From a virus: a DNA stretch of 64,000 nucleotides. The translations under genes and the position numbers were made by a program. The stretch covers positions 26,527-90,526 of IMG/VR virus record IMGVR_UViG_3300005253_000098. One strand, 5' to 3'. Below, in pieces: positions 5,446-53,085 of this stretch. Under the pieces are notes generated by a model that saw only the letters and a program-made list of their open reading frames with translations, was not told the origin of the DNA and searched no databases. Each line of letters opens with the position of its first letter. Position 1 is the first letter of the stretch.

Positions 5446-8400
5446 TCATGCCATTACCTGTTTTAATTTTTCAGATATTTGCTTAATTGTTCTGTCTGCT
5501 TCCATGGGATCATCTGCTTTGATAATAAAAGTAATGTTCTGAGTAACGTTATTATTATTGTTTGTGGTGCTTCTACCATCGGCTATACGTATAGCAGTAT
5601 TTAGAGTATCTGCATCTCTTGAGGAGAAGACTGGTTCTCCTCCATGAGCAATAATTGGAACACTGCCTGCCCCTGGAACTGTTCCACCTGTTTGGAAACT
5701 ACTAAACCACCTGGCAACGTCTCCGAGACTACTCCATGTTCTTTCCTCTATCGAGCCTTTTCCACTACGTTGCCACCGATCCTGTTCAAAGTCTTCAATC
5801 AGACCCTTTGCACCAAAGGTAAGTGCATTAAATCCATCCACAATAACCTTGACGATAGCATCTCCTATCATAACGATAACATTAGAAATGCCTTCTACCA
5901 GGATCTCCGGCGAATTTATTAGTATATCTGTTGCTTTAGCTACTCCATCGACCATTTCAGTGAACCCATTAGCTAAGTTATCCAATCCATCCAGTAACCA
6001 TTGAGTTAATCTACCGAGATCGTCCCAGAGATCCTGTAGGTTAAGTAATACAGTTATTGCTCCAAATAGACCACCTACTAACCTGGCGAATCCATCAATG
6101 ATTCCTAATAAACCCTGTATCAAGACTACTCCTGCAAATCTTCCGAGTTCGTAGAATAGACGTAATATATCTCCAAGTATCTGCATAAGTGGATTAATGA
6201 CACCCATAATTGCACCGAAGATTGCTCCTAAACCATCACTAATTCCAGTCAGACCTTCCATGCTGGTGCCAAGATTATCAAAAATCTTGATCGTTGCTTG
6301 AATTGCTCCTACGAGTCCTCCTATAACAAATGCTACTACTGATATAACAATAGATGCTTTAGCAAGGAGTTTTACAAATCCCATGAGTCCTCCACCGGCA
6401 TCAAATAGAGCCTTGTGAAATACAAGTTGTGCTCCTCTTCCAACGATAGCAGCAGCCTCGGGTCCGCCTCCAGCTCCTGCAATGATCGGTCCGATGGTAG
6501 CACCAATGATTCCACCTATTATACCAGCCATAATCTTACTGAATCCGCTTGCTCCAGTTGCTGCGGCTCCTGCTCCCTGGAATCCTAATGCCATGGTTGT
6601 CTTGAGTGTATTAAGTGCAAATATGAATCCACCAAGAACTGGTGTCAAAAGCGAAATGCTTGCTCCTACAACTTCGATGGCTACTCCTAATCCAGCCAAT
6701 ATTGGCACAGCTGCAACAGCAAACAATGCTATCTGTGTTAATCCGGATGCTATAGCTTCTACAGATGATCCACCTGTATCACCGAAGATTTTATCTATTA
6801 TCTTACCTATTCCATCAAATATAAATTTTATAAATCCAAATCTTATTCCTATCCTGTCCAGTAGATCCATCATCATCTTAGCAAAGCGTTGACCGTGTGT
6901 AGTAGTTGCCTCTAATCCATTTGTGACGGCATCGGTCCCCTTGGTAATCCATCGGAATAAGTTGACTACATCTTCCAGAAATCTGGTTACTCCTTTTCCT
7001 ATTCCCGCCCCAATCTCTTCAAAGAATGGTGCCGCATCTTTTAGAACATCTACTAATCTCTCTAAGACACCTGTTTGCATTAATTGTTTTCCTATGGCTT
7101 CTCCTGTGGCTATTTTCATCTCATCAATAGTATTGATCACTGCTTTTAATGCCAGATCTAACCGTGGTGTAGTGTCATTAGCAAATTCTTCTGTTATACC
7201 ATTTACGTTTCTATTAGATTCTGCCAGTTCATCGAGAGCATCTCTATTAGCTAATATCTTCTTAACTAATTCTGCCTGTCTGGCTCCGAACAATTCTGAT
7301 AAGAACCCAGCTCTGTCAAGGTCTGTTCCAAAACTATCATATTGGACTTGTAGTAAATCGAACTGTTCTCCCATCGATCTAAGCTCTCCGGTTGCTGGAT
7401 CGAGGAAGTCTCTAATATAGAGCTTACCCTTGGTAGCTAATGAATCCAGGACACTACCGAACCTTCTTGCTCCAACTGAAGGTGGAATACCAGCCTGTTG
7501 CAAAACTCCGAGTGCTGCTGCTACATCTGCTAAACTGAATGAATAAGCTTCTGCAATACCTGAGACGAACTGCATTGATGTTCGTAATTCGCTCAATGTA
7601 ATGTTAGTTTGGTTAGCTGTATTAGTCAAAATATCTGAGGCTTTAGCTGCTGATAAGAATGTATCCTGTGGTAATGATTCCCTGAATGATACCATGACAT
7701 CTGTTAAGGTATCGACTGCTGTTTGTGTATCAGAAAATGTGGCTTTACCAAGTAGCACAGCCTGGTTGAATACGATCATAGATTCTGCTCCCCTGAATCC
7801 TGCCTGTTGAACCTCGATAAGCATTTCTGCAGTCTCTTGTAACGATACTCCGAAGCTCCTGGCTATGTCGAAGCCGTCTTTGATCTGAGCCATTCCTACA
7901 TCGAAAGCATCTCCGGTCTCACCCATAGCTATTCCTAACTGGATAGCTGATTTTTCAAGCTCGGCGAACGATTTGACTCCAAATATTGCAAATGAACCCA
8001 ATGCTCCTACAGTAAATAGTATGTCTCGGGCTGTGAACTGTAGATTACGACCGAAGTTCCTGGCTTGTCTGCCTGCTCGACTGAGAGATCTTCCCAGGCT
8101 GTTAGTTTTTCTCCTGACTTTCTCCTGTTCTTTCCTGAACTTTACGAGATCCCTTCGAGTATCCTCTAAGATTTTCTTGTAGGTTGTCTTTCTCTGGGTG
8201 ATCTTCTTTGTTTCCTTGGCAACTAAGGCTTCTTCTCTCGCCAAGGACTTCATCTGGATAGCAAATGATTTAGCAGCGGTTTTTGCGACAGCCATGGCTG
8301 TAGCCATTTGATCTCGTTTATTTCCGAGTTCCTCCTCTACTGAAAGTATTTTCTCCTGACTTGCTCCTACTGCTGCCATAATCTCAGTTTGATCTTTCCC

Positions 8401-9189
8401 AGCTTTATCTAAGGCTTTCATGGATTCTTCTACCCGTTTTCTAAACTGTAAGGCTGTTTTTGCCAATTTCTCGAATCCAGCGGCGGTCTCTGTTTGCCCG
8501 GGGATTACAGTTCCCATTAAAATATTCTGCAATTGTTCCCTTGCTCCTGAAATACGAGCCTGACCTGCTCTATTCTCAAATGATGAAATCAGCATGCCTC
8601 CTTCTGCTTCTCCGGTTACTCCACCTTTCCCGGTTCTTGCTGGCATCCGTTGCGAGTCAAGCATACCCCTGGCTCTTCTTATTAGTTCCAATTGGAACTG
8701 AAGAGAGTGTTCTCTCTCCTTTTCATCTTTTATCAGCTTCTTAAGGACAATTTCTTCTGCCTGTAACTGTATGGTTATATCTTTACTGAATCTTAGACTC
8801 GCCTTCCGTGTTTCGAGATTGTGTTCAAGCACCCTTCTACCTGTTTCACTGTCTCTTCTCTCTGTTTGTATGAGCTGGTTTCGTTTCTTTTCGGCTTCTA
8901 ATAGACGACGGACGCCAACTAATTCTCTCTGTTTCATTAGAACGATAAGATTGGATTTTCTTAACTGTATGTCCATGTTACGAGTTTGTGATTCCGTCAG
9001 TATTTTGATAGAGGGTTTACCTAATTCCTCTTTAGCAAATTTATTATAAGACTTGCTCATTCGATTGATGGCTTTATTTACTGCATCGAATTGACCACTG
9101 ATTCCCTTCAATCGGCTACGTATAATATTAGAAGCCTGATCTTCTCCAATAACTAAATCAATGGGGATTTCTATTGATGGTGCACTCAT
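5446..9189 (-). CDS. Tail tape measure protein (TP901-like core)
   Basis: 1247 aa, coiled-coil N-terminus, Ala/Gly-rich hydrophobic segments, ANQTN..L.EL...LGVLQQAGI core; follows the chaperones. Confidence 0.92.
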   Translation of the reverse strand: MSAPSIEIPIDLVIGEDQASNIIRSRLKGISGQFDAVNKAINRMSKSYNKFAKEELGKPSIKILTESQTRNMDIQLRKSNLIVLMKQRELVGVRRLLEAEKKRNQLIQTERRDSETGRRVLEHNLETRKASLRFSKDITIQLQAEEIVLKKLIKDEKEREHSLQFQLELIRRARGMLDSQRMPARTGKGGVTGEAEGGMLISSFENRAGQARISGAREQLQNILMGTVIPGQTETAAGFEKLAKTALQFRKRVEESMKALDKAGKDQTEIMAAVGASQEKILSVEEELGNKRDQMATAMAVAKTAAKSFAIQMKSLAREEALVAKETKKITQRKTTYKKILEDTRRDLVKFRKEQEKVRRKTNSLGRSLSRAGRQARNFGRNLQFTARDILFTVGALGSFAIFGVKSFAELEKSAIQLGIAMGETGDAFDVGMAQIKDGFDIARSFGVSLQETAEMLIEVQQAGFRGAESMIVFNQAVLLGKATFSDTQTAVDTLTDVMVSFRESLPQDTFLSAAKASDILTNTANQTNITLSELRTSMQFVSGIAEAYSFSLADVAAALGVLQQAGIPPSVGARRFGSVLDSLATKGKLYIRDFLDPATGELRSMGEQFDLLQVQYDSFGTDLDRAGFLSELFGARQAELVKKILANRDALDELAESNRNVNGITEEFANDTTPRLDLALKAVINTIDEMKIATGEAIGKQLMQTGVLERLVDVLKDAAPFFEEIGAGIGKGVTRFLEDVVNLFRWITKGTDAVTNGLEATTTHGQRFAKMMMDLLDRIGIRFGFIKFIFDGIGKIIDKIFGDTGGSSVEAIASGLTQIALFAVAAVPILAGLGVAIEVVGASISLLTPVLGGFIFALNTLKTTMALGFQGAGAAATGASGFSKIMAGIIGGIIGATIGPIIAGAGGGPEAAAIVGRGAQLVFHKALFDAGGGLMGFVKLLAKASIVISVVAFVIGGLVGAIQATIKIFDNLGTSMEGLTGISDGLGAIFGAIMGVINPLMQILGDILRLFYELGRFAGVVLIQGLLGIIDGFARLVGGLFGAITVLLNLQDLWDDLGRLTQWLLDGLDNLANGFTEMVDGVAKATDILINSPEILVEGISNVIVMIGDAIVKVIVDGFNALTFGAKGLIEDFEQDRWQRSGKGSIEERTWSSLGDVARWFSSFQTGGTVPGAGSVPIIAHGGEPVFSSRDADTLNTAIRIADGRSTTNNNNNVTQNITFIIKADDPMEADRTIKQISEKLKQVMA

Positions 9190-9536
9190 CTTTTTCTTCT
9201 TTGATCCATTTTCTCAAATTGCCCTTTTTTTACAGGCATAACTTTCTTGGTTGACATTTTGGGTATTGGTCTATCGGCGAATATATCTAACTGCCTTTGG
9301 ATTTCTGGTCTATCTCTTCTTGTATCACCTAACAGGTGTTTGTCCCTGGCTTTGGATTGACCTGTTTTACTTCTTGCTTCATCTGATGCTTCAGTCTCTA
9401 ACCGAATCATTTCTCCGGCGAGAGTCATATCGAAAAATAGATTATCTGGATAACGTTTGATCATTATAAGGACGGATGGACGCACCTGCCAATATTTAGC
9501 AGTTGCACCCAGTGACCGACCAAATTCACTCGTCAC
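9186..9536 (-). CDS. Tail assembly chaperone, C-terminal part (gpGT-like, probably made by +1 frameshift)
   Basis: Lies between chaperone and TMP, in the +1 frame immediately after TCC TTT C. Confidence 0.75.
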   Translation of the reverse strand: MTSEFGRSLGATAKYWQVRPSVLIMIKRYPDNLFFDMTLAGEMIRLETEASDEARSKTGQSKARDKHLLGDTRRDRPEIQRQLDIFADRPIPKMSTKKVMPVKKGQFEKMDQRRKR

Positions 9537-11201: not shown

Positions 11202-13376
11202 TTAAGCAACCCTGTGTTTACGGACAGTTAAAGTTATCTTGAACGCACTGACTCCGGGTTTAGCCTCACTGATAAATATCATTTCTGGTGGGGTTGTTAT
11301 TAAATCTATAGTTCCATTTAGCAATGTCCTTGGAACACTATTAATGAATATCTCATTAAAGTAAGAGAATATCCTTATCTTTTCTATAAACTCTGTATCT
11401 GGATTGAACTTCTCAAATATCATTATTTTGATCGGGATGTTGTGTCCTGGTGTTGTTCCAATCGTATAGTATTGAGCACCTACTGAATCAAAGTCTATTA
11501 CACAGTATGGATGCACTGCTCCCAGTTTCTCGTTCCCAATGAACACATCCGTGAACTCAAACCTCTCCATTTCTATCTTGGTCAACTCATCAGATAACTG
11601 GACTGTCTTTGGTTCTATTACAAAATCCAACATGAGTTTTCGTAGTTCAATCAATAAGTTTGTATAGTTCGTAAAGACCTTACCAATTCTGATATCCGGT
11701 CTAATGACAAACCTGGTCAGGGTTCTTGATTCCCTGGCAGAAATAGACCCGATATCGACCGACCTGGTCAAACTTCTACTTTCTTGAGCAAAGCTTTGAA
11801 CTATTAATGCTATTGCCCTTGATTCCCTCGCTGTTTGCTGGACAGTTCTTGTTAATGTTCTTGATTCTTGAGCAGTAGCCTGAACAATACGTGTAAGAGT
11901 TCTTGATTCTTTTACGGGAGTTAATACACTTCTTGTAAGTGCCCTGGATTCTCTATTAAAAGCTTGCACAGTTAAAGCTAAGGTTCTACTCTCTCTGACA
12001 GTAATACGAACACTCCTGGTGAGTGTCCTACTCTCACGAGCAATGATTCTAACTACTCTCGTAAGTGCTCTTGGTTCCCTGGCGAATTGTTGGATTATCA
12101 GTGCCAAGGTTCTACTTTTTCTATCCGTCAGTATAGCTGATCTTGTAAGTGTTCTCGATATTCTATCTGTTATTTGTGCAGTCCTTACAAGTGTTCTACT
12201 CTCACGAGTTACCTGTTTGACTGTTCTTGTAAGAGTTCTGCTTTCCTTATCAGTCAATATGACTGACCTTGTTAGTGTTCTTGAAACGCGATCGGATATC
12301 TGTGCAGTCCTTGTTAGTGCTCGGCTCTCCCTATCAGTCTGCTGGACTGTCCTGGTCAGGGTTCTTGATTCTTTACTTGGAGCTAATACGGTTCTGGCTA
12401 ATGTTCTTGATTCTTTCGATGCTAAGATTACTGATCGTGTAAGAGTTCTGCTTACTTGATTCATTATCTGTGCAGTTCTTGTAAGTGTCCTTGACTCTCT
12501 TACAGTTATAACAACAGTTCTTGTTAATGTTCTACTCTCTTTATCAGTAAGGATAACATTTCTGGTTAGTGTCCTTGATTCCCTATCACTAATCTGTGCG
12601 GTTCTAACTAATGTTCTTGATTCCTGATCCCAAACTTGCACGGTTCTTGTAAGAGGTCTACTTTCCCTATCATAGACCTGGACTATTAGTGCTAAGGTTC
12701 TACTGACTTTATCTACGATGATTACTGATCTGCTAAGAGTTCTGCTTTCCTTATCAAACCATTGTGCTTCTCTGGTAAGGGTTCGTGATTCTCGATCCCA
12801 AACTTGAACCTCCCTTGTTAGTGTCCTGGATTCTCTGGCTGATAATACTCCAGCCTCAGTCGTGACCTGTGCAGCTAAGGTCGTTGATAAGGCTGATCCT
12901 TGTGTTTCATCATAGAGTCTAAATTCGTATTGTTTATTGTCTAAAGCATTAGACATATCAATAAGAAACTGGAATTCTATACCATTGTTCTGGGTGCCCG
13001 TTACCGAAGCAGTAGTATAAGGAGATTCAGTATCTATTTCGTGAGATTCGGAATCCAGGGTTCCAGACTCACATCCTGCTGAATCTCCAATAGGATCATT
13101 ATTAACTAATAATCCAGCAGACACACCTGTTCTTAATTCTCCAGAACCACTGACTAAATTAGTAAAAGAACCAGCATCAGTAACATTTCTCCACTGAAGA
13201 GTGAACGATGCCGCAGTAGGAGTATGCTTTGTTGAAACTATCCCATACGATAAGATTAGTTTATTAGTCTTGACCCAACCAGTGACATCTACTCCACAAG
13301 CTGCCTCCCAAGTCATAGTAGTTGCATGATCTTTAGCAATCCTACCACCTTCAGAGTCGTAGTCAGATGCAGTCAT
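11202..13376 (-). CDS. Fusion protein: N-terminal beta domain, 27x14-aa repeat shaft and C-terminal tail-terminator-like domain
   Basis: Repeats [RK]ESRTLTRxVxxxx; C-terminal ~150 aa (HPYCVIDFD...FKITLTV) directly before the tube gene. Confidence 0.7.
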   Translation of the reverse strand: MTASDYDSEGGRIAKDHATTMTWEAACGVDVTGWVKTNKLILSYGIVSTKHTPTAASFTLQWRNVTDAGSFTNLVSGSGELRTGVSAGLLVNNDPIGDSAGCESGTLDSESHEIDTESPYTTASVTGTQNNGIEFQFLIDMSNALDNKQYEFRLYDETQGSALSTTLAAQVTTEAGVLSARESRTLTREVQVWDRESRTLTREAQWFDKESRTLSRSVIIVDKVSRTLALIVQVYDRESRPLTRTVQVWDQESRTLVRTAQISDRESRTLTRNVILTDKESRTLTRTVVITVRESRTLTRTAQIMNQVSRTLTRSVILASKESRTLARTVLAPSKESRTLTRTVQQTDRESRALTRTAQISDRVSRTLTRSVILTDKESRTLTRTVKQVTRESRTLVRTAQITDRISRTLTRSAILTDRKSRTLALIIQQFAREPRALTRVVRIIARESRTLTRSVRITVRESRTLALTVQAFNRESRALTRSVLTPVKESRTLTRIVQATAQESRTLTRTVQQTARESRAIALIVQSFAQESRSLTRSVDIGSISARESRTLTRFVIRPDIRIGKVFTNYTNLLIELRKLMLDFVIEPKTVQLSDELTKIEMERFEFTDVFIGNEKLGAVHPYCVIDFDSVGAQYYTIGTTPGHNIPIKIMIFEKFNPDTEFIEKIRIFSYFNEIFINSVPRTLLNGTIDLITTPPEMIFISEAKPGVSAFKITLTVRKHRVA
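11694..12836 (-). repeat. 27 tandem 42-bp (14-aa) coding repeats
   Basis: Counted by eye; one unit has a 3-aa insertion; conserved at protein level, degenerate at DNA level. Confidence 0.9.
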
Positions 13377-20019: not shown

Positions 20020-21264
20020 TTATTCTGAGAAGATATCGGTTATTAATCCTACGTTTCTTGAGGTAGTGTCACCTTCAAGAGCGGGCACGAATTGAGTATT
20101 GAAGAGTCTTTTCCAGGTCACAATTGTTCCTTGACCTCTCCAGCGTTCTTGCTCCATTAAGGGGATTTCTCCACCACTGTATGTTCCATGGATACAAGTA
20201 TCAGCTCCTTTATAAGTTACAAGAGCATCGTTGTCAAAGGTTGCGTTTCTGGTAAAGTATATTTCAAATCCTTCAGCAGATAAGGCTGCTCCGACTTTTC
20301 CTTCAGTGATAACGGCTGGGTGTCCAGCTGTTTGTCCACCTTGGGTGATACCAGGCTTTATAGCAAGATAAGGTTTAAGAACCAAGGGTGCAACTACATA
20401 TTTCTTATCTCCAAGCTCGCCTACTGGTTTCCGAGTTTGATCCAATAGTGTTGAGTGAGCAGAGCCGAAGTCTTGAACGAAATCTGGTTCATTAGCTGCA
20501 GAGCCATCCCATTTGTCGGCAGATGCTACATCTGCGAGGACTCCGAAAGAAGATGAAAACAACTCCGCAAGGATGTTATTATCAATTTCTAAAGCCACAG
20601 CCTCAGATTGTCTTTTCATGAAGTCTGATCTGAATTGTCCGATTTGATTGCTTGCCATTGAAGCATCGGTAATATACATACTCATTGAACCGAGTTTGAG
20701 ACCCATTCCGTATCCCCAGTAGGTCAGTGTTTGGATATTTCCAATTCCAGACTCTATAGGTAGTGGATACTCGAAAGTCAACTCGTTAGGACGAAGCCAT
20801 CCCATCTCAAGCGTGCTTGAACTCTCAGTGTAGACTACATTTAATCCAACTGATATGTTCCTTGTAGCTTGATACCAGAGCTTACGATAGATTTCTCGCA
20901 CAATAGCCCCATCAATCGTAGTAGATCCAGCCGCCAGGTGAGATGCATACGGTTGTGGGAAATAGCAAGCATTTTCATCGGCTTTCACACCGACTAATGT
21001 GCCATTTTGGATTGCACTTTCAGGAATCCATTTTCCACCAAATCCAGGGATTTCTCCCGGTTTGATTAGAGCATAAGACTTATTCTGATATTCAGATAAG
21101 ATTTGTTCGGAAGTCTTAAATTGACTTAAATATTCTTTGATTGCGTGATCGCCACGAGCTGGATTAGGCTCTTGAAGCTGATGCTCTTTCTGTTGAGCAG
21201 CAAATTCAGCCTGTTGCTTCGCGGCAGCAGCCATTTCAGGGGTTACAGTTGCTTGTGCTGTCAT
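20020..21264 (-). CDS. Major capsid protein (HK97 fold, inferred)
   Basis: 414 aa; follows protease and decoration genes; spine-helix-like SEAVALEIDNNIL; strong AGGTGA RBS. Confidence 0.8.
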   Translation of the reverse strand: MTAQATVTPEMAAAAKQQAEFAAQQKEHQLQEPNPARGDHAIKEYLSQFKTSEQILSEYQNKSYALIKPGEIPGFGGKWIPESAIQNGTLVGVKADENACYFPQPYASHLAAGSTTIDGAIVREIYRKLWYQATRNISVGLNVVYTESSSTLEMGWLRPNELTFEYPLPIESGIGNIQTLTYWGYGMGLKLGSMSMYITDASMASNQIGQFRSDFMKRQSEAVALEIDNNILAELFSSSFGVLADVASADKWDGSAANEPDFVQDFGSAHSTLLDQTRKPVGELGDKKYVVAPLVLKPYLAIKPGITQGGQTAGHPAVITEGKVGAALSAEGFEIYFTRNATFDNDALVTYKGADTCIHGTYSGGEIPLMEQERWRGQGTIVTWKRLFNTQFVPALEGDTTSRNVGLITDIFSE

Positions 21265-25212: not shown

Positions 25213-27024
25213 CTATCTTCGCCTGCGTGACAAAGAAAGAGATCTCGATGCCATACTTCCCATTCTACGAGCAGAACTCATCATAGGCATACTTTTGGCT
25301 ACTACGGCAGGGATAGCAGTTGGTGGACTGAACGTAGCACTAAGAGCTGGTCCAATTCCCACTTCTGGCATCTCCTGAATGAGATTCGCACCAGTTATGA
25401 CCAGCACAGCTACATCCAGAATATCTTTCGAGCCCTTTGGTGGATGGTCGATACCCTTGGTGGTAGCCGTAACTTTCAATTGCATCTCTTTAACTTCCCT
25501 TGTGAAAACAGGATACTCCGGCATAGTGAACATCCTAAATTGAGCATAATTCTTAAACAGTTCCGCTTCGGGAAATCGGATCTGCCGTTGAACTACGTCC
25601 AAACCCTCTCGATCGAGTGTTTGTTGAAGTATCGGATAGTTCAACGTATCAAACATCGCACGCCTCAAAGGAAACAAATAATTACAAGAAAGGAAGAAAT
25701 CCCTAACCTTAAAGGCATCAATATCAGACTCCTTCGGAACAAACCTGTAAAAACCATCAAACTGAATATGATAAAGCAATCGATCCTCAGCCTCAGAACC
25801 CATCAACTTACCAGCAGTATTATACTTATAGACCTTGTGCCACTCACCCTCACCAATAGTATGACCGACTGCGATGCCGAACGCATCGAGTCGTGTTGCC
25901 GGATCACCAGCAATAATATAGTAAGCATTACTATCAATAGGCATACCAGACTCGTGTTTAAGAACGTCGAGACGTTCCGTCGCATAGCCATGCTCCTCCA
26001 CGATCTCTCCAATGGGTTGTAAGAGATTGGGTAAGTTGGGTTGGATGTTTGGTCGGATGGTCTGGTCGTAATCTTTGATCCAAACATTAGAAGCAAAACT
26101 GGGATCGCAACCATAAAGTTGCCAGAACTCAGCAGGTTCGGTCGTTCGCTCGGTGTCAAAGTCCTCAAACTTGTAAAGCTTATTCCCGAAGGGATTAGTA
26201 ACCTCATCATACCAGGTCACGACCTTCATCCAGATAGTTTCTCCACCACTGGCTTCAGCAGGCTGCTTTAACCTCCACATCTTAGAGCCTGCCAGTCCAC
26301 TACTCGAAATCATAAACACCTTCCCAAAAAGACCTTTAGTAGCTTGGTAGAGTGTCTTAGTCGAGTTCTTCATAATCTTATAAACATTATCGACTCCACT
26401 TGGTCCCTCTGTATCATCGAACTGATCTACTTCGTCCATACTAAAGAAAGCAGCAGTCTTACCAGCCGCACCGCCAGACTTGCTCGCAAGTGCAATAACA
26501 TCAACATTCTCCCTCGGAAAATTGATCTCCTCACTCCTGATGTTCATCTCAGGAGCATATTCCCTAAAGTAGGGTGAACTATCAAACATAGCTTTGCTAA
26601 TGGCGAACACCGAGTCCAGGGACTGTGGCTTATTGGTAGCAACATTAGTGATTTTAATGTGCTGATCCTTCATTTGACCGAATTCTTTTGCAGGAGTCCA
26701 GCCTGGCTTATCTGCAATCCTGTGCATCTTATACATAGCTACGAAAGCTTGAATACCAGCAGTAGTCGTTTTACTTAGACGCATACCGCCCATTACGACC
26801 ATTTCTCTGATATTCTGGTTGGGAATACCCCTTACGGTATTACACGGACTCCACAAGCGACGACTGACCTCCTTTTGCAGTGGTGTCGGCTCAACATATT
26901 GCCCTCCATGAAAATAAGGATCAGAAATAAGATAGACTGGATCGAGGAACCCCTTATACATTTTTGTTCTTCGTTGCAGATCAGTAAGTCTGCCCCAGCT
27001 CTTAACCATATCGTGTCGCCGCAA
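25213..27024 (-). CDS. terL: Terminase large subunit
   Basis: Walker A variant GGMRLSKTT, Walker B FFSMDE, coupling motif ISS, nuclease IAGDPA..DAFG and DHPPKGSKDILD. Confidence 0.92.
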   Translation of the reverse strand: MRRHDMVKSWGRLTDLQRRTKMYKGFLDPVYLISDPYFHGGQYVEPTPLQKEVSRRLWSPCNTVRGIPNQNIREMVVMGGMRLSKTTTAGIQAFVAMYKMHRIADKPGWTPAKEFGQMKDQHIKITNVATNKPQSLDSVFAISKAMFDSSPYFREYAPEMNIRSEEINFPRENVDVIALASKSGGAAGKTAAFFSMDEVDQFDDTEGPSGVDNVYKIMKNSTKTLYQATKGLFGKVFMISSSGLAGSKMWRLKQPAEASGGETIWMKVVTWYDEVTNPFGNKLYKFEDFDTERTTEPAEFWQLYGCDPSFASNVWIKDYDQTIRPNIQPNLPNLLQPIGEIVEEHGYATERLDVLKHESGMPIDSNAYYIIAGDPATRLDAFGIAVGHTIGEGEWHKVYKYNTAGKLMGSEAEDRLLYHIQFDGFYRFVPKESDIDAFKVRDFFLSCNYLFPLRRAMFDTLNYPILQQTLDREGLDVVQRQIRFPEAELFKNYAQFRMFTMPEYPVFTREVKEMQLKVTATTKGIDHPPKGSKDILDVAVLVITGANLIQEMPEVGIGPALSATFSPPTAIPAVVAKSMPMMSSARRMGSMASRSLSLSRRRR

Positions 27025-49875: not shown

Positions 49876-50076
49876 TTGAGTGAAGAACCCAAGAAGAAAT
49901 TCGATCCACCTTATTGTCCATGGTGTGGATCAAAGATTACTAATATGCCGAAAGCTACGGAAAAGGAACCTATGATCCTGAATACTACGATCCGTTGTCT
50001 AAATTGTGATGCTAAGATAGTCTTTAGCGAAACGGAATTAGGATTCAATATGCATGTAGGAATTGGTATAAAATGA
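49876..50076 (+). CDS. Zinc-ribbon protein
   Basis: YCPWCGS...RCLNC. Confidence 0.65.
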   Translation: MSEEPKKKFDPPYCPWCGSKITNMPKATEKEPMILNTTIRCLNCDAKIVFSETELGFNMHVGIGIK

Positions 50077-50786
50077 CTGAAAAAGGATTTCTCCCTGCAA
50101 CATGGAATGAAATATCTGCCCATTATGGTAGTTTTCTTGATAAAGAGTTTGCATCGGCTCACTGGAAAATAGCCGATATTCTACAGTATGTAGCTAATGT
50201 TGTGCAACATCTACCGACAAAAGGAGAACTTGTAGAATTTTCTGATATGGCTGCAAGCCAATTAGAGGATGATATGGTTAGTCGAGGTTGGGACTCCATT
50301 TCTACGCTCGTGGACATCTGGCACGGTGATCGATATTGTAAAATGTGCAACTCCAGGCTCAAAGAGAAATCCGACGTTGAAAACAACTTCCAGAGGAAAT
50401 GCGAGAGATGTCAGAAACTCAACTGGTTCACCATGAGCAAGGATCAACGTAGATACGTATTCACACTCATACAAAAACATTTACAGTGGGTAGCAGACGA
50501 GATTATTGCCTACAAAATTAGACCAGGCGAAGACTTCGAGACAAAATTCCCACAAGATCTAACTAACGTCGAGGTTAGTGCATATCCACAATGGTTCTCA
50601 GGAACTCGAGAAGAATCATTAAATTCCAATGAAGTTTATATTCGATGTGGTCACACAGCTTGTAATAACCGACTGATCACATCTGACCCATGGGAGAAGA
50701 ATGCATATAATAATTGTTTAGATCATATCTTTGAATATGAGCATGAAAAAGTAGCAGACCATCCCATGATTTTTGGGAACACTTAA
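50073..50786 (+). CDS. Protein with two zinc-binding motifs
   Basis: YCKMC...KCERC; C....C...H....H. Confidence 0.7.
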   Translation: MTEKGFLPATWNEISAHYGSFLDKEFASAHWKIADILQYVANVVQHLPTKGELVEFSDMAASQLEDDMVSRGWDSISTLVDIWHGDRYCKMCNSRLKEKSDVENNFQRKCERCQKLNWFTMSKDQRRYVFTLIQKHLQWVADEIIAYKIRPGEDFETKFPQDLTNVEVSAYPQWFSGTREESLNSNEVYIRCGHTACNNRLITSDPWEKNAYNNCLDHIFEYEHEKVADHPMIFGNT

Positions 50787-50820
50787 AAAACCTATATAAT
50801 ATAATAAAATGTGATATATC

Positions 50821-51357
50821 ATGTCCGAAGAACCAACATCCTCAGATGCCAAAGGCACTGAGATTATAATCGATGTCGAGCCCAGAAACAAAGAGTTTCG
50901 CGTCGAAGTAATGCCCGAGACTACCGTTGAGGAAGTTATCGCCACTCTGATTCGCAGATGTGAAGACGAAGGTATTAACGTGTCCGACTGGGGACGCTCA
51001 AAAGTAGGTTCAAGCAACGTGTCTTTTACAATGTTACGTAAAAGCACTGGGAATACTGCGTTAGCACCTAACGTGACTTTTGGTGAACTCTTTCCAGAAA
51101 TGGAAGATCGCGAGACGTTCCGCTTAGATGCAAGAGCACAGGTAGGCGAAGCTCGAACATACGCCGAAAATACTCAGCGAGCATTTGAGTTCGACGAGCT
51201 ACAAAACATTCGAGCAACTGCTGACTATAATGCTCAGACACTACTTGATTCTCCGCCCGAGACGATAGATCAGCACTGGATTCCAGCCTACAGACTGCTT
51301 CAACATGCTGCTAACAATCTTCTCATGCTAAAGATTAGACTTCAGGAAACTGAGTAG
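50821..51357 (+). CDS. Ubiquitin-like (beta-grasp) domain ending ...ARAQVG, fused to a C-terminal helical extension
   Basis: IIIDVEP..KEFRVEV.PETTVEEVI..L, F..L, L....TFGEL, ETFRL..AQVG pattern; own TATA-like promoter. Confidence 0.65.
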   Translation: MSEEPTSSDAKGTEIIIDVEPRNKEFRVEVMPETTVEEVIATLIRRCEDEGINVSDWGRSKVGSSNVSFTMLRKSTGNTALAPNVTFGELFPEMEDRETFRLDARAQVGEARTYAENTQRAFEFDELQNIRATADYNAQTLLDSPPETIDQHWIPAYRLLQHAANNLLMLKIRLQETE

Positions 51358-51369
51358 GAGGAGAGCCCT

Positions 51370-51711
51370 ATGGTTCTCCGAGCTGTAGCCGTCTACTGGT
51401 ATACGAATCGGGATGCATTACTGCGTCCCCTTTCCGTTGTCCTGGATGCCAGCAGAATTTTAAACCTCTTACCTCCGTCCGAGAAAGAACGAGAGGCTCT
51501 AATTAATCAAGAAATTGGAGTGCAAGACTATTTCGCCGAGTGCATTAAAGCTGTTGTCTTAAACTTTTCGACACCCGATTTCGACCCAAAACGAGACCAC
51601 GATACACACTTCCTCATGCGAATGCGAGATAAGTATGAACGAGCAACCTCACCACAGGAGAAGATAGAAATTGGTAGCGTTAGCCAACTGGAAAATAAAG
51701 AACACGACTGA
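51370..51711 (+). CDS. Hypothetical protein
   Basis: AGGAGG RBS; follows the Ubl gene. Confidence 0.65.
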   Translation: MVLRAVAVYWYTNRDALLRPLSVVLDASRILNLLPPSEKEREALINQEIGVQDYFAECIKAVVLNFSTPDFDPKRDHDTHFLMRMRDKYERATSPQEKIEIGSVSQLENKEHD

Positions 51712-51834
51712 TAGATATAATGTTTTCTGTTTCTATTGCGGAATAGTTAAAGATGTCAATCAAGAAGAATGGGAAGAACATGTTTGGGATAAACATCTCA
51801 AGTTACTTGCTCCAATACCTGATTAAGTGATTTT

Positions 51835-53085
51835 ATGATTTGCGGTGCTCACAAGGGCGTTTTTACAGGCGAGGCTCATCCATTCCAACTCGAGGGTAAA
51901 CCTGTCATTCTGTGCACTGAATGTTTCGAGGGGTTTTCTCAGACCAACCAGGATGAGCTTATTCGAGTCAATGAGGAATCTGAACGTCTGAGGGATGCAG
52001 GAGAATATACTACTGGTCGTGTAGGTCGAGACCGTCGTCGAACTACTGAACAAATTGAGGCTCAAGATGATCGTAATAGACAACGTGGTGAACGTCGCAG
52101 ACTCAGAGCTATGGAACGTGCTGAGCAAGACGAAGATGATCGTATCAGGGAAACACAAGTTGGTCGTGTTGCTCCAAACCGAGAACAACTGGAAGACCCT
52201 CTTCCACAAGAATATACACGTAGCCATCGTTCGTGGTCAAGCGAGCCCTATACACGACCCAATCAACCTCCTGTTCCTTTCGTTGATACTGAAGTTACTG
52301 ATACTGAACGAGCCGAACAATTAGCCAGACAAACTATTTTCGCTCTTACAACTGGTGGTATACCAGCAGACTTTCCATTAGTTCCTGTGGGTAGTAATCA
52401 ACCCGATCATCGTATTCAACTTGCTCCTGTAGCTGGTTCAACCGATAGACGAGTCGCCAATCATATGATCAGAATTAAAGCTATTCTTCGAGAGGAAGAG
52501 ATAATTCCAGACTATCCACCTTTCTTTGCTACACAAACCCCTCAATTTATTGAGGATTTCTTCGATACCATTTATCCAGGATTGACAGAGGCTGGTCACG
52601 ATGAGAGAATGCGTCGTTTCAGGTCTCTTATCGATCATCCAAACAAGGACAATCCAGAATTTTTCAAAACTTATCTTGAGAATCATATCAACGACGCTGA
52701 GAGAACTATACGACCGCCAGTCTACAGCAAAATTCATATGTTTGCTAATGGTCCTCATGGAGAATTAGCTGCTCCCAATCTAATATTCGATAAAGCCTCC
52801 TATCTCCAGATTGATCCAGGTAACAGATTACGCTTTATAACTTATGATACTGATAATATGGAGCTTATGAGACTATTTTACCGGGATATAAATTTTGGTC
52901 GTTCTTATATAATCAAAACTTTTTCTCCTACTGTGCACGGACATCACACCTCCTGGTATCAATACGATGATTATGTTATCGATGACGGTATTTGGTTAAC
53001 CGATAGTAATGGTGTTGATGTTATCGGCTTAATGATTTTATTTAATGCCCCTACCACTACCATCCCGGAGGCTTTAATAGTATGA
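51835..53085 (+). CDS. Hypothetical protein with N-terminal Zn finger and Arg/Glu-rich region
   Basis: C..H...LCTEC. Confidence 0.75.
   Translation: MICGAHKGVFTGEAHPFQLEGKPVILCTECFEGFSQTNQDELIRVNEESERLRDAGEYTTGRVGRDRRRTTEQIEAQDDRNRQRGERRRLRAMERAEQDEDDRIRETQVGRVAPNREQLEDPLPQEYTRSHRSWSSEPYTRPNQPPVPFVDTEVTDTERAEQLARQTIFALTTGGIPADFPLVPVGSNQPDHRIQLAPVAGSTDRRVANHMIRIKAILREEEIIPDYPPFFATQTPQFIEDFFDTIYPGLTEAGHDERMRRFRSLIDHPNKDNPEFFKTYLENHINDAERTIRPPVYSKIHMFANGPHGELAAPNLIFDKASYLQIDPGNRLRFITYDTDNMELMRLFYRDINFGRSYIIKTFSPTVHGHHTSWYQYDDYVIDDGIWLTDSNGVDVIGLMILFNAPTTTIPEALIV

Follow-up and report, generated by a model that had tools for sequence, protein, structure and literature searches.

A tailed virus represented by IMG/VR record IMGVR_UViG_3300005253_000098 encodes a ubiquitin-like protein (Ubl) that is related to modifiers of Asgard archaea and carries, directly behind its conserved terminal glycine (Gly109), an unrelated extension of 69 amino acids. 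The gene lies in the right-hand 64 kb of the 90,526-bp record (64,000 nucleotides, record positions 26,527 to 90,526; hereafter the window, in which all viral coordinates are given). We favour, with a probability of roughly 55%, the reading that this host-derived Ubl is made as a precursor which a JAB protease of the host would cut at Gly109, the virus depending on the E1, E2 and JAB enzymes of that host.

The open reading frame (ORF) occupies positions 50821..51357 of the plus strand (178 amino acids and a stop codon). Its product, as both the ORF list and the translation confirm in agreement with the initial annotation of this DNA, reads ...FRLDARAQVG(109) and continues as EARTYAEN...LQETE. 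The beta-grasp Ubl domain (residues 13–109; 50857..51147, plus strand) is delimited by AlphaFold2, Foldseek and VIA-align as well as by its homologues. The GGC codon of Gly109, the conserved terminal Gly of the family and the predicted site of cleavage and conjugation, lies at 51145..51147 (plus strand), and the extension at 51148..51354 (plus strand) is an orphan that the model predicts to be a helical hairpin and that codon usage marks as coding.

Predicted fold of the N-terminal domain

The structural models assign the N-terminal domain with high confidence to the beta-grasp (ubiquitin) fold, as the initial annotation had proposed. AlphaFold2, run on an alignment of 29 rows, predicted the order strand-strand-helix-helix-strand-strand-3(10)-strand over residues 13–106 (strands 13–19 and 24–30, helices 36–49 and 54–62, strands 67–73 and 79–81, a short helix 87–90 and a strand 98–106), with a predicted local distance difference test (pLDDT) above 90 (91–95 across the block), and both Foldseek and VIA-align agreed with this assignment. 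The tail formed two helices in the same model (residues 111–143 and 146–177; pLDDT 73–81) without support from the alignment. The best 50 Foldseek matches in the PDB (all E ≤ 0.001) all fell on the N-terminal domain, their targets including SUMO/SUMO1, ubiquitin, UBX, ISG15, the bacterial Bil Ubl (8tyx), Caldiarchaeum ubiquitin (6fnn) and the EccD Ubl, with template-modelling (TM) scores by target of 0.6–0.8 for the single-domain targets among these 50. VIA-align against beta-grasp proteins gave Z scores of 9.6–11.0 over 72–89 aligned residues (within residues 9–108), the best rows also taking in non-modifiers such as the toluene monooxygenase gamma subunit and EccD, and the structural neighbours in the Atlas were the YukD/EsaB, Rad60-SLD and ubiquitin clusters.

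Sequence searches with the window protein gave nothing significant in Pfam (E ≤ 1), PHROGs or the PDB sequences, and a profile of 17 family members recovered from the PDB sequences only a 'ubiquitin-like protein' (5zmb, E 0.16). The protein is not ubiquitin proper (PF00240), having no Pfam family at the above threshold and a C-terminal Val-Gly rather than Gly-Gly; the Heimdall-type cellular Ubl (see below) also matched no Pfam family at E ≤ 0.1. Mature UFM1 ends in a single Gly after Val, resembling the Val-Gly end found here. A kinship with UFM1 was considered on account of this end and of the UBA5-like E1s reported for Nidhogg viruses, and searches with PF03671 gave it no support, matching neither the window protein nor anything in three Asgard genomes that carry the cellular cassette. 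No UFM1 entry stood among the listed Foldseek and VIA-align rows, which alone do not exclude one. Ufm1 homologues have been reported in nine Asgard clades (PMC12962969).

Relatives of the viral protein and the glycine boundary

A word-indexed search returned 28 proteins with 66–90% identity to the window protein, the similarity being confined to residues ~14–109. In the alignment of these virus-type relatives (A1) homology ends at Gly109, which is invariant in 29/29 rows, and the preceding RAQV is invariant or nearly so even in the tailed forms. The virus-type set as a whole comprises 31 proteins (the window protein, the 28 search matches and two proteins read from fetched contigs). Gly is the last residue in nine of them, a single extra residue (V, N, H, A, F or R) follows it in ten and two extra residues in two, while the other ten carry long tails of 30–87 residues (one cut by a contig end). 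This pattern of ends is, by analogy, that of ubiquitin precursors. Since the end is free or nearly free in 21 of the 31 proteins, the usual form of the family would be competent for conjugation, which weakens the initial annotation's proposal of a non-conjugatable decoy.

The long tails are mutually unrelated save for the pair P0003/P0008 (E 1e-10) and the weak pair P0013/L004 (E 0.001–0.003). P0025 (138 amino acids, from JGI) joins the Ubl to a CxxC...CxxC zinc ribbon and bears the source name ribosomal protein L37AE/L43A. P0003 and P0008 have in common a 45-residue cargo domain that starts 2–3 residues after an RAQVG motif in both. P0008 (positions 771-1271 of contig L001) contains this motif twice, the second copy 12 residues past the first, and its cargo follows the second copy; in P0003 the cargo follows the only copy. 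The duplicated motif looks like a duplicated processing site. An exhaustive phmmer search across 1.84 billion cluster representatives extended the family to remoter members (24–52% identity), most of which stop right at the aligned Gly. In P0036 and P0040 (~300 amino acids each) the Ubl is joined directly after this residue to an E2-like domain, and these fusions show that translation through the Gly recurs in the family. Together with the placement of RAQVG in P0003 and P0008, these Ubl–E2 fusions may be taken as precedents for cleavage at the Gly.

The closest relatives lie on short metagenome contigs, four of which (with Ubl genes 72–84% identical to that of the window) are virus-like in gene content. 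L001 is syntenic with the window. The Ubl domains of the two share 83% identity against 42% and 28% for the products of the next two genes, a difference that points to strong constraint on the Ubl domain. A recombinase-like gene, identified by eye, lies upstream of the Ubl gene in L003, and a gene with a Walker-A motif in L004. A scan of IMG/VR gave 22 pattern matches and no confirmed relative, and the INPHARED phage collection held no match to the window Ubl.

Cellular homologues and their cassette in Asgard archaea

The initial annotation took the viral domain for a captured cellular Ubl and predicted homologues that end at AQVG and lie near E1, E2 and JAB genes; such homologues were found. 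Scanning one genome for each GTDB species with a single peptide pattern yielded 21 confirmed loci, all in Asgard metagenome-assembled genomes (MAGs); resting on this one pattern, the scan is no proof of absence outside Asgard. The MAGs are labelled Heimdallarchaeota, Hermodarchaeota, Promethearchaeota, Odinarchaeota, Thorarchaeota or 'archaeon'. The window Ubl is 58–62% identical to the Heimdall-type Ubls (61–62.5% to Heimdall-labelled proteins) and 42–49% identical to the other Asgard proteins, with E-values against the cellular homologues of 1e-27 to 1e-41. Among 400 sampled Asgard genomes 31 contained a Ubl of this cellular type, always as a single copy and at ≤61% identity to the window Ubl.

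The cellular proteins end at the aligned Gly or shortly after it. For 22 cellular Ubls the end was the Gly itself in 4 cases, one residue later in 12, two in 1, three in 4 and four in 1. The last of these, on contig L005 (58% identity over 106 amino acids by BLASTP), has AQVG followed by four residues. Seven further Heimdall-type genomes have a Ubl that ends exactly in ACAQVG; an exact AQVG end occurs in 10 Heimdall-type genomes in all, and in this nearest clade 10 of 11 Ubl genes stop exactly at the Gly. The C-terminal stretches of the virus (FRLDARAQVG) and of the Heimdall-type host (FKLDACAQVG) are nearly identical. A long extension, which by the initial annotation would have counted against its proposal, was present at 0/29 cellular loci.

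A tree was computed from 66 rows and 106 columns, with virus-type rows trimmed at the Gly and three fusion rows cut to 110 amino acids; P0034, P0035, P0037, P0041, P0043, P0044 and P0052 (fragments or frame-shifted ends) and the unrelated P0049 and P0051 were left out. The viral rows grouped with the Heimdall-type clade (support 96/75), and the other Asgard clade stood apart (99/98); the 106 columns leave most inner forks unresolved, and neither viral monophyly nor the direction of transfer can be read from the tree.

The cellular Ubl gene belongs to a cassette. An E2-like gene follows it directly at 21/22 loci, a ThiF E1 gene is present at 18/22 (Pfam E 1e-39 to 1e-41), a Prok-JAB gene at 15/22 (E 4.6e-9, ThiF and Prok-JAB both passing their Pfam cut-offs, with the Glu and HSH..S..D positions of the JAB invariant), a zinc-finger protein gene at 17/22 and a transglutaminase-like protein gene at 16/22, and loci lacking a part are mostly interrupted by contig ends. 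The cassette also holds a conserved protein of 70–98 amino acids, and the transglutaminase-like protein is absent from Heimdall-type loci. Representative examples are the Heimdall-type cassette at L008 5845-9483, in a Heimdall-type MAG and with Ubl, E2 (8411-9190), E1 (7018-7872) and JAB (6370-7005) parts, and the Promethearchaeota cassette at L010 7989-12785, whose JAB gene (12156-12785, minus strand) has a Prok-JAB match; both stand beside a long Walker-A ATPase that is SMC/Rad50-like by eye. Contig L005 carries a ThiF E1 (E 8.7e-41), the Ubl, the E2-like gene and then a histidine ammonia-lyase. The E2-like protein falls below the thresholds of sequence searches (UQ_con E 0.004–0.012, PDB sequences E 0.08) and has HPR in place of HPN; its model (residues 11–200 mostly at pLDDT >85) had UBC enzymes for all of its best 50 Foldseek matches in the PDB.

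Two further features of these loci were observed. The E2-like proteins (L008 8411-9190 and relatives, alignment A7) have a disordered, Lys/Glu-rich C-terminal tail (pLDDT <30) with two to three copies of a motif of the type G-G-[IM]-R-I-I or V-R-I-L-D, the last copy lying at the C-terminus. Just downstream of the Heimdall-type cassette lies a histidine/aromatic ammonia-lyase whose middle is interrupted by a rubredoxin domain (L005 2555-4273, L008 9629-11347; Lyase_aromatic E 4.5e-169, Rubredoxin E 2.5e-13).

A separate canonical ubiquitin gene (PF00240) was found in 3/3 cassette-bearing genomes searched, and since the same genomes hold both, the cassette constitutes a second, non-canonical Asgard Ubl system. 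The canonical ubiquitin ends in Gly-Gly at both loci read (L027 and L029); L029, a RING-Ub-E2-E1 operon, comes from the same genome as the L010 cassette.

Because all 21 confirmed genome loci belong to Asgard MAGs, the Ubl gene is supported as a genuine host clue, as the initial annotation had suggested for this window, and its sequence points to Asgard archaea with the Heimdall-labelled clade as the nearest. No other part of a ubiquitin system was found in the virus: searches of the whole 90.5-kb record (an estimated 74% complete) for ThiF (Pfam), E2-like and JAB proteins were negative, and in a tblastn search of the window with all cassette proteins only the Ubl matched.

The C-terminal extension

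The tail is real coding sequence, since its codon usage is typical of genes in frame and a stop-free run of its length would be improbable. Its in-frame codon score was 0.31, against 0.35 ± 0.14 for 109 in-frame scoring windows from 16 genes of the window; off-frame scoring windows averaged -0.72 and none exceeded the score of the tail, and the probability of 69 stop-free codons at its composition is 0.023. Nor is the tail an assembly slip, since a further sample of the source study yielded contigs that cover 51010-51249 and 51024-51412 and reproduce the sequence with 0 differences. In-frame ATG, GTG and TTG codons occur only within the last 11 codons; lacking an early in-frame start, the tail could therefore be produced only as a fusion to the Ubl. 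It spans the entire gap up to the ribosome-binding site of the next gene.

Among the 1.84 billion cluster representatives no relative of the tail was found except two repeat proteins, P0049 and P0051, which share with it a short HW-containing word and were judged to be chance matches. A feature search of the Atlas with the tail gave no match, and its structural neighbours there were generic helical hairpins. In a marine-sediment run of another study (X4) a relative of the virus matches 51370-51767 with 2–8 differences per contig, and its sequence directly upstream of 51370 is unrelated to the window, so that the Ubl-tail region differs there. This divergence fits the variability of the tails.

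Proposed processing of the viral Ubl and alternative explanations

The following course of events would accommodate these observations. A lineage of tailed viruses would have taken its modifier from the non-canonical Asgard Ubl system, with Heimdallarchaeota-labelled MAGs as the nearest known source. The ORF would be translated as a precursor of 178 amino acids, and a JAMM/JAB protease of the host would cut it after Gly109. The cut would free a mature Ubl of 109 amino acids, its Gly exposed and able to enter the E1–E2 cascade of the host, and with it a helical-hairpin peptide of 69 residues, which lacks its own start codon. The viral Ubl might then be attached to targets to the benefit of the virus or compete with the Ubl of the host, and because E1, E2 and JAB were not found in the virus it would have to act through those of the host.

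Several properties of the family bear on this course. A conjugatable Ubl is expected to have the fold, a conserved terminal Gly and a linkage to E1, E2 and protease genes. The window protein has the fold and the Gly, though exposure of the latter hinges on the predicted cleavage; the linkage is found for the cellular homologues and not for the virus record. An unrelated polypeptide directly after the terminal Gly is the architecture of a ubiquitin-fusion precursor. A predicted complex of the Heimdall-type JAB (A6, residues 50–211) with the viral Ubl (A1, residues 8–125) scored 0.01 and carries no weight either way. Processing of a ubiquitin precursor is reported for one archaeal JAB, CsRpn11 (PMC6043591).

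Some points weigh against our reading. The cleavage is a prediction from sequence comparison. As 10 of 11 Ubl genes of the likeliest host clade stop at the Gly, trimming is not demonstrably needed there, and the JAB of the Heimdall-type clade may serve only deconjugation. The record being incomplete, viral enzymes could lie in its missing part. It is from the Ubl gene alone that we infer the host: no Ubl of the virus type (>61% identity) was present in the 400 Asgard genomes, and the putative capsid gene (20020-21261) had one marginal match in them (E 9.7e-4). The tail, finally, is an orphan for which neither a function nor known relatives were identified.

The main rival is a fusion that stays uncleaved, its blocked Ubl acting as a docking module or decoy that binds E1, E2, JAB or Ubl receptors of the host, either to inhibit the host pathway or to deliver the helical tail to that machinery. 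Rad23 and parkin, with their integral Ubl domains, provide a model for such a module. We retain this explanation because the Ubl of the nearest host clade itself needs no trimming; it would also suit the 69 genuine coding residues behind Gly109, the failure to find a JAB-type protease in the virus and the strongly conserved Ubl surface, as expected where binding to host enzymes has to be preserved. We nevertheless regard it as rather unlikely, given that 21 of 31 relatives have a free or nearly free Gly, that the long tails are mutually unrelated, and that Gly109 and the preceding RAQV are (nearly) invariant even where a tail follows. The Ubl–E2 fusions and the repeated RAQVG ahead of the P0008 cargo point to cleavage too, and as between a cleavable pro-form and a blocked decoy the comparison of sequences leans to cleavage.

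Less likely again is a tail without function: the stop codon would be free to shift, and the 69 residues would be a tolerated read-on, trimmed and discarded after cleavage. It would explain lengths that range from 0 to 87 residues with only P0003/P0008 and, weakly, P0013/L004 alike, a window tail that has no relatives, and a related virus in another study that diverges completely just upstream of 51370. It accords poorly with the normal in-frame codon usage and the 0.023 chance of the stop-free run, with the regular helical hairpin predicted (pLDDT 73–81, again without alignment support), with a tail that occupies all the space up to the ribosome-binding site of the next gene, and with the fact that one tail type is a conserved domain and another (P0025) a zinc ribbon. 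That the protein is a structural or other non-conjugating viral module, like Ubls in fold only, is very improbable: beta-grasp domains are widespread, non-modifiers stand among the best VIA-align rows and no Pfam or PHROG family matches, but 42–62% identity to cellular proteins encoded beside E2 and near E1 and JAB, with the same Gly end, largely refutes it.

Genomic context in the virus

Two window proteins, one a tape-measure protein by its match to PhageMin_Tail (E 1e-23) and one a tail tube protein by its match to Phage_tube_2 (E 3e-12), class the virus as tailed. The majority of the other window proteins had no match in Pfam or PHROGs; ten of them searched against PHROGs gave only two families, both of unknown function. 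ARAGORN found no tRNA gene in the whole window (1-64000). All four sequencing datasets found to hold window sequence are marine sediment metagenomes, and no RNA dataset was among the listed holders.

A TATA-like AT-rich tract, read by eye from the sequence, lies at 50793..50809 (plus strand), 12–28 nucleotides 5' of the ATG of the Ubl gene, and may be an archaeal promoter that gives a leaderless or near-leaderless mRNA. Directly 3' of the Ubl stop codon, within 51358..51711 (plus strand), the sequence contains a GGAGGAG tract of the Shine-Dalgarno type, and the next gene, co-oriented on the plus strand (51370-51711), encodes a protein of 113 amino acids and unknown function; the order of these neighbours is kept in L001. 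Both genes flanking the Ubl operon (50073-50786 and 51835-53085) encode CxxC zinc-ribbon motifs, and neither had a family match. The N-terminus of the 416-residue protein encoded at 51835-53085 is weakly conserved in L001 (28% identity).

Comparison with known systems and implications

Eukaryotic ubiquitin-fusion genes join ubiquitin to the ribosomal proteins eL40 and eS31. The viral family is like them in that a small unrelated protein directly follows the terminal Gly of an N-terminal Ubl, and the zinc ribbon of P0025 recalls them; it is unlike them in that its tails are not conserved, the tail of the window protein is not ribosomal and processing here is a prediction. Ubiquitin genes have also been captured by viruses of eukaryotes, as in v-ubi of baculoviruses and the ubiquitin inserts of cytopathic pestiviruses, which host deubiquitinases cut to free the downstream protein. 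A captured host modifier gene is likewise kept highly similar to that of the host in the present case, whereas the probable host is archaeal, the modifier is not ubiquitin proper and the cargo varies between close relatives.

The anti-phage Bil systems (BilABCD) have the same four parts as the Asgard cassette (Ubl, E2, JAB and E1), and the Bil Ubl 8tyx is among the best structural matches of the window protein (Foldseek E 1.5e-4, TM score by target 0.77; VIA-align Z 10.6). No sequence relationship between Bil and the window family was detected, the likeness being one of parts list and fold, and the Asgard cassette, in contrast to Bil, is placed beside an SMC/Rad50-like ATPase (by eye, at two loci) and present in one copy per genome.

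In Caldiarchaeum subterraneum a eukaryotic-like Ub-E1-E2-RING-Rpn11 operon has been described (PMC5654768, PMC6043591). Like the Asgard cassette, it brings together a small beta-grasp modifier, an E1 of the ThiF type, an E2 with the UBC fold, a JAMM protease and a zinc-finger protein; its modifier precursor is reported to be able to extend past the terminal Gly and to be trimmed by JAB, and the window model aligned with 6fnn chain C at a VIA-align Z of 10.2. The Asgard relatives differ from it in their length of 103–108 amino acids, an extra helix, a single Gly (VG, not GG) and the lack of a Pfam ubiquitin match, and the window Ubl differs in being viral and standing alone. Nidhogg viruses of Helarchaeota are described as carrying three E1-like ThiF genes (bioRxiv 10.1101/2021.07.29.454249). 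They too are tailed viruses of Asgard-type hosts with ubiquitin-like parts, reportedly read as a hijack of host tagging; unlike these enzyme-encoding viruses, as far as that report describes them, the window virus has the tag only, fused to a tail, and searches for the enzymes in it were negative. In the literature searched, which did not extend to supplementary data, no Asgard virus was described as encoding a Ubl by itself. The present virus is set apart by having the tag alone, from a non-canonical Asgard Ubl family and with variable C-terminal fusions.

For an otherwise unrecognisable 90-kb virus the Ubl gene provides the only host assignment found. One viral protein and three host enzymes make a concrete and cheap system for the study of precursor processing in Asgard archaea and of its use by viruses. 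Attention is also drawn to the second Ubl system of Asgard archaea, which escapes standard domain libraries: the Ubl has no Pfam match and the E2 remains below threshold. Ubiquitin-type tagging and its hijack by viruses have been seen as eukaryotic themes; here a tag borne by a virus traces to a distinct Asgard Ubl-E1-E2-JAB cassette and occurs, as ubiquitin genes of eukaryotes do, in precursor-like and fused forms. We propose tentatively, and with clearly less confidence than cleavage of the window protein itself, that small proteins as varied as a helical hairpin, a zinc ribbon and a conserved 45-residue domain, placed behind the Gly of the Ubl, are freed by the JAB of the host, while the viral Ubl would enter the second Asgard E1–E2 pathway and redirect tagging during infection. 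If true, this would place counterparts of ubiquitin-fusion genes and of viral ubiquitin hijacking in archaea, and both habits would have been present on the archaeal side of eukaryogenesis.

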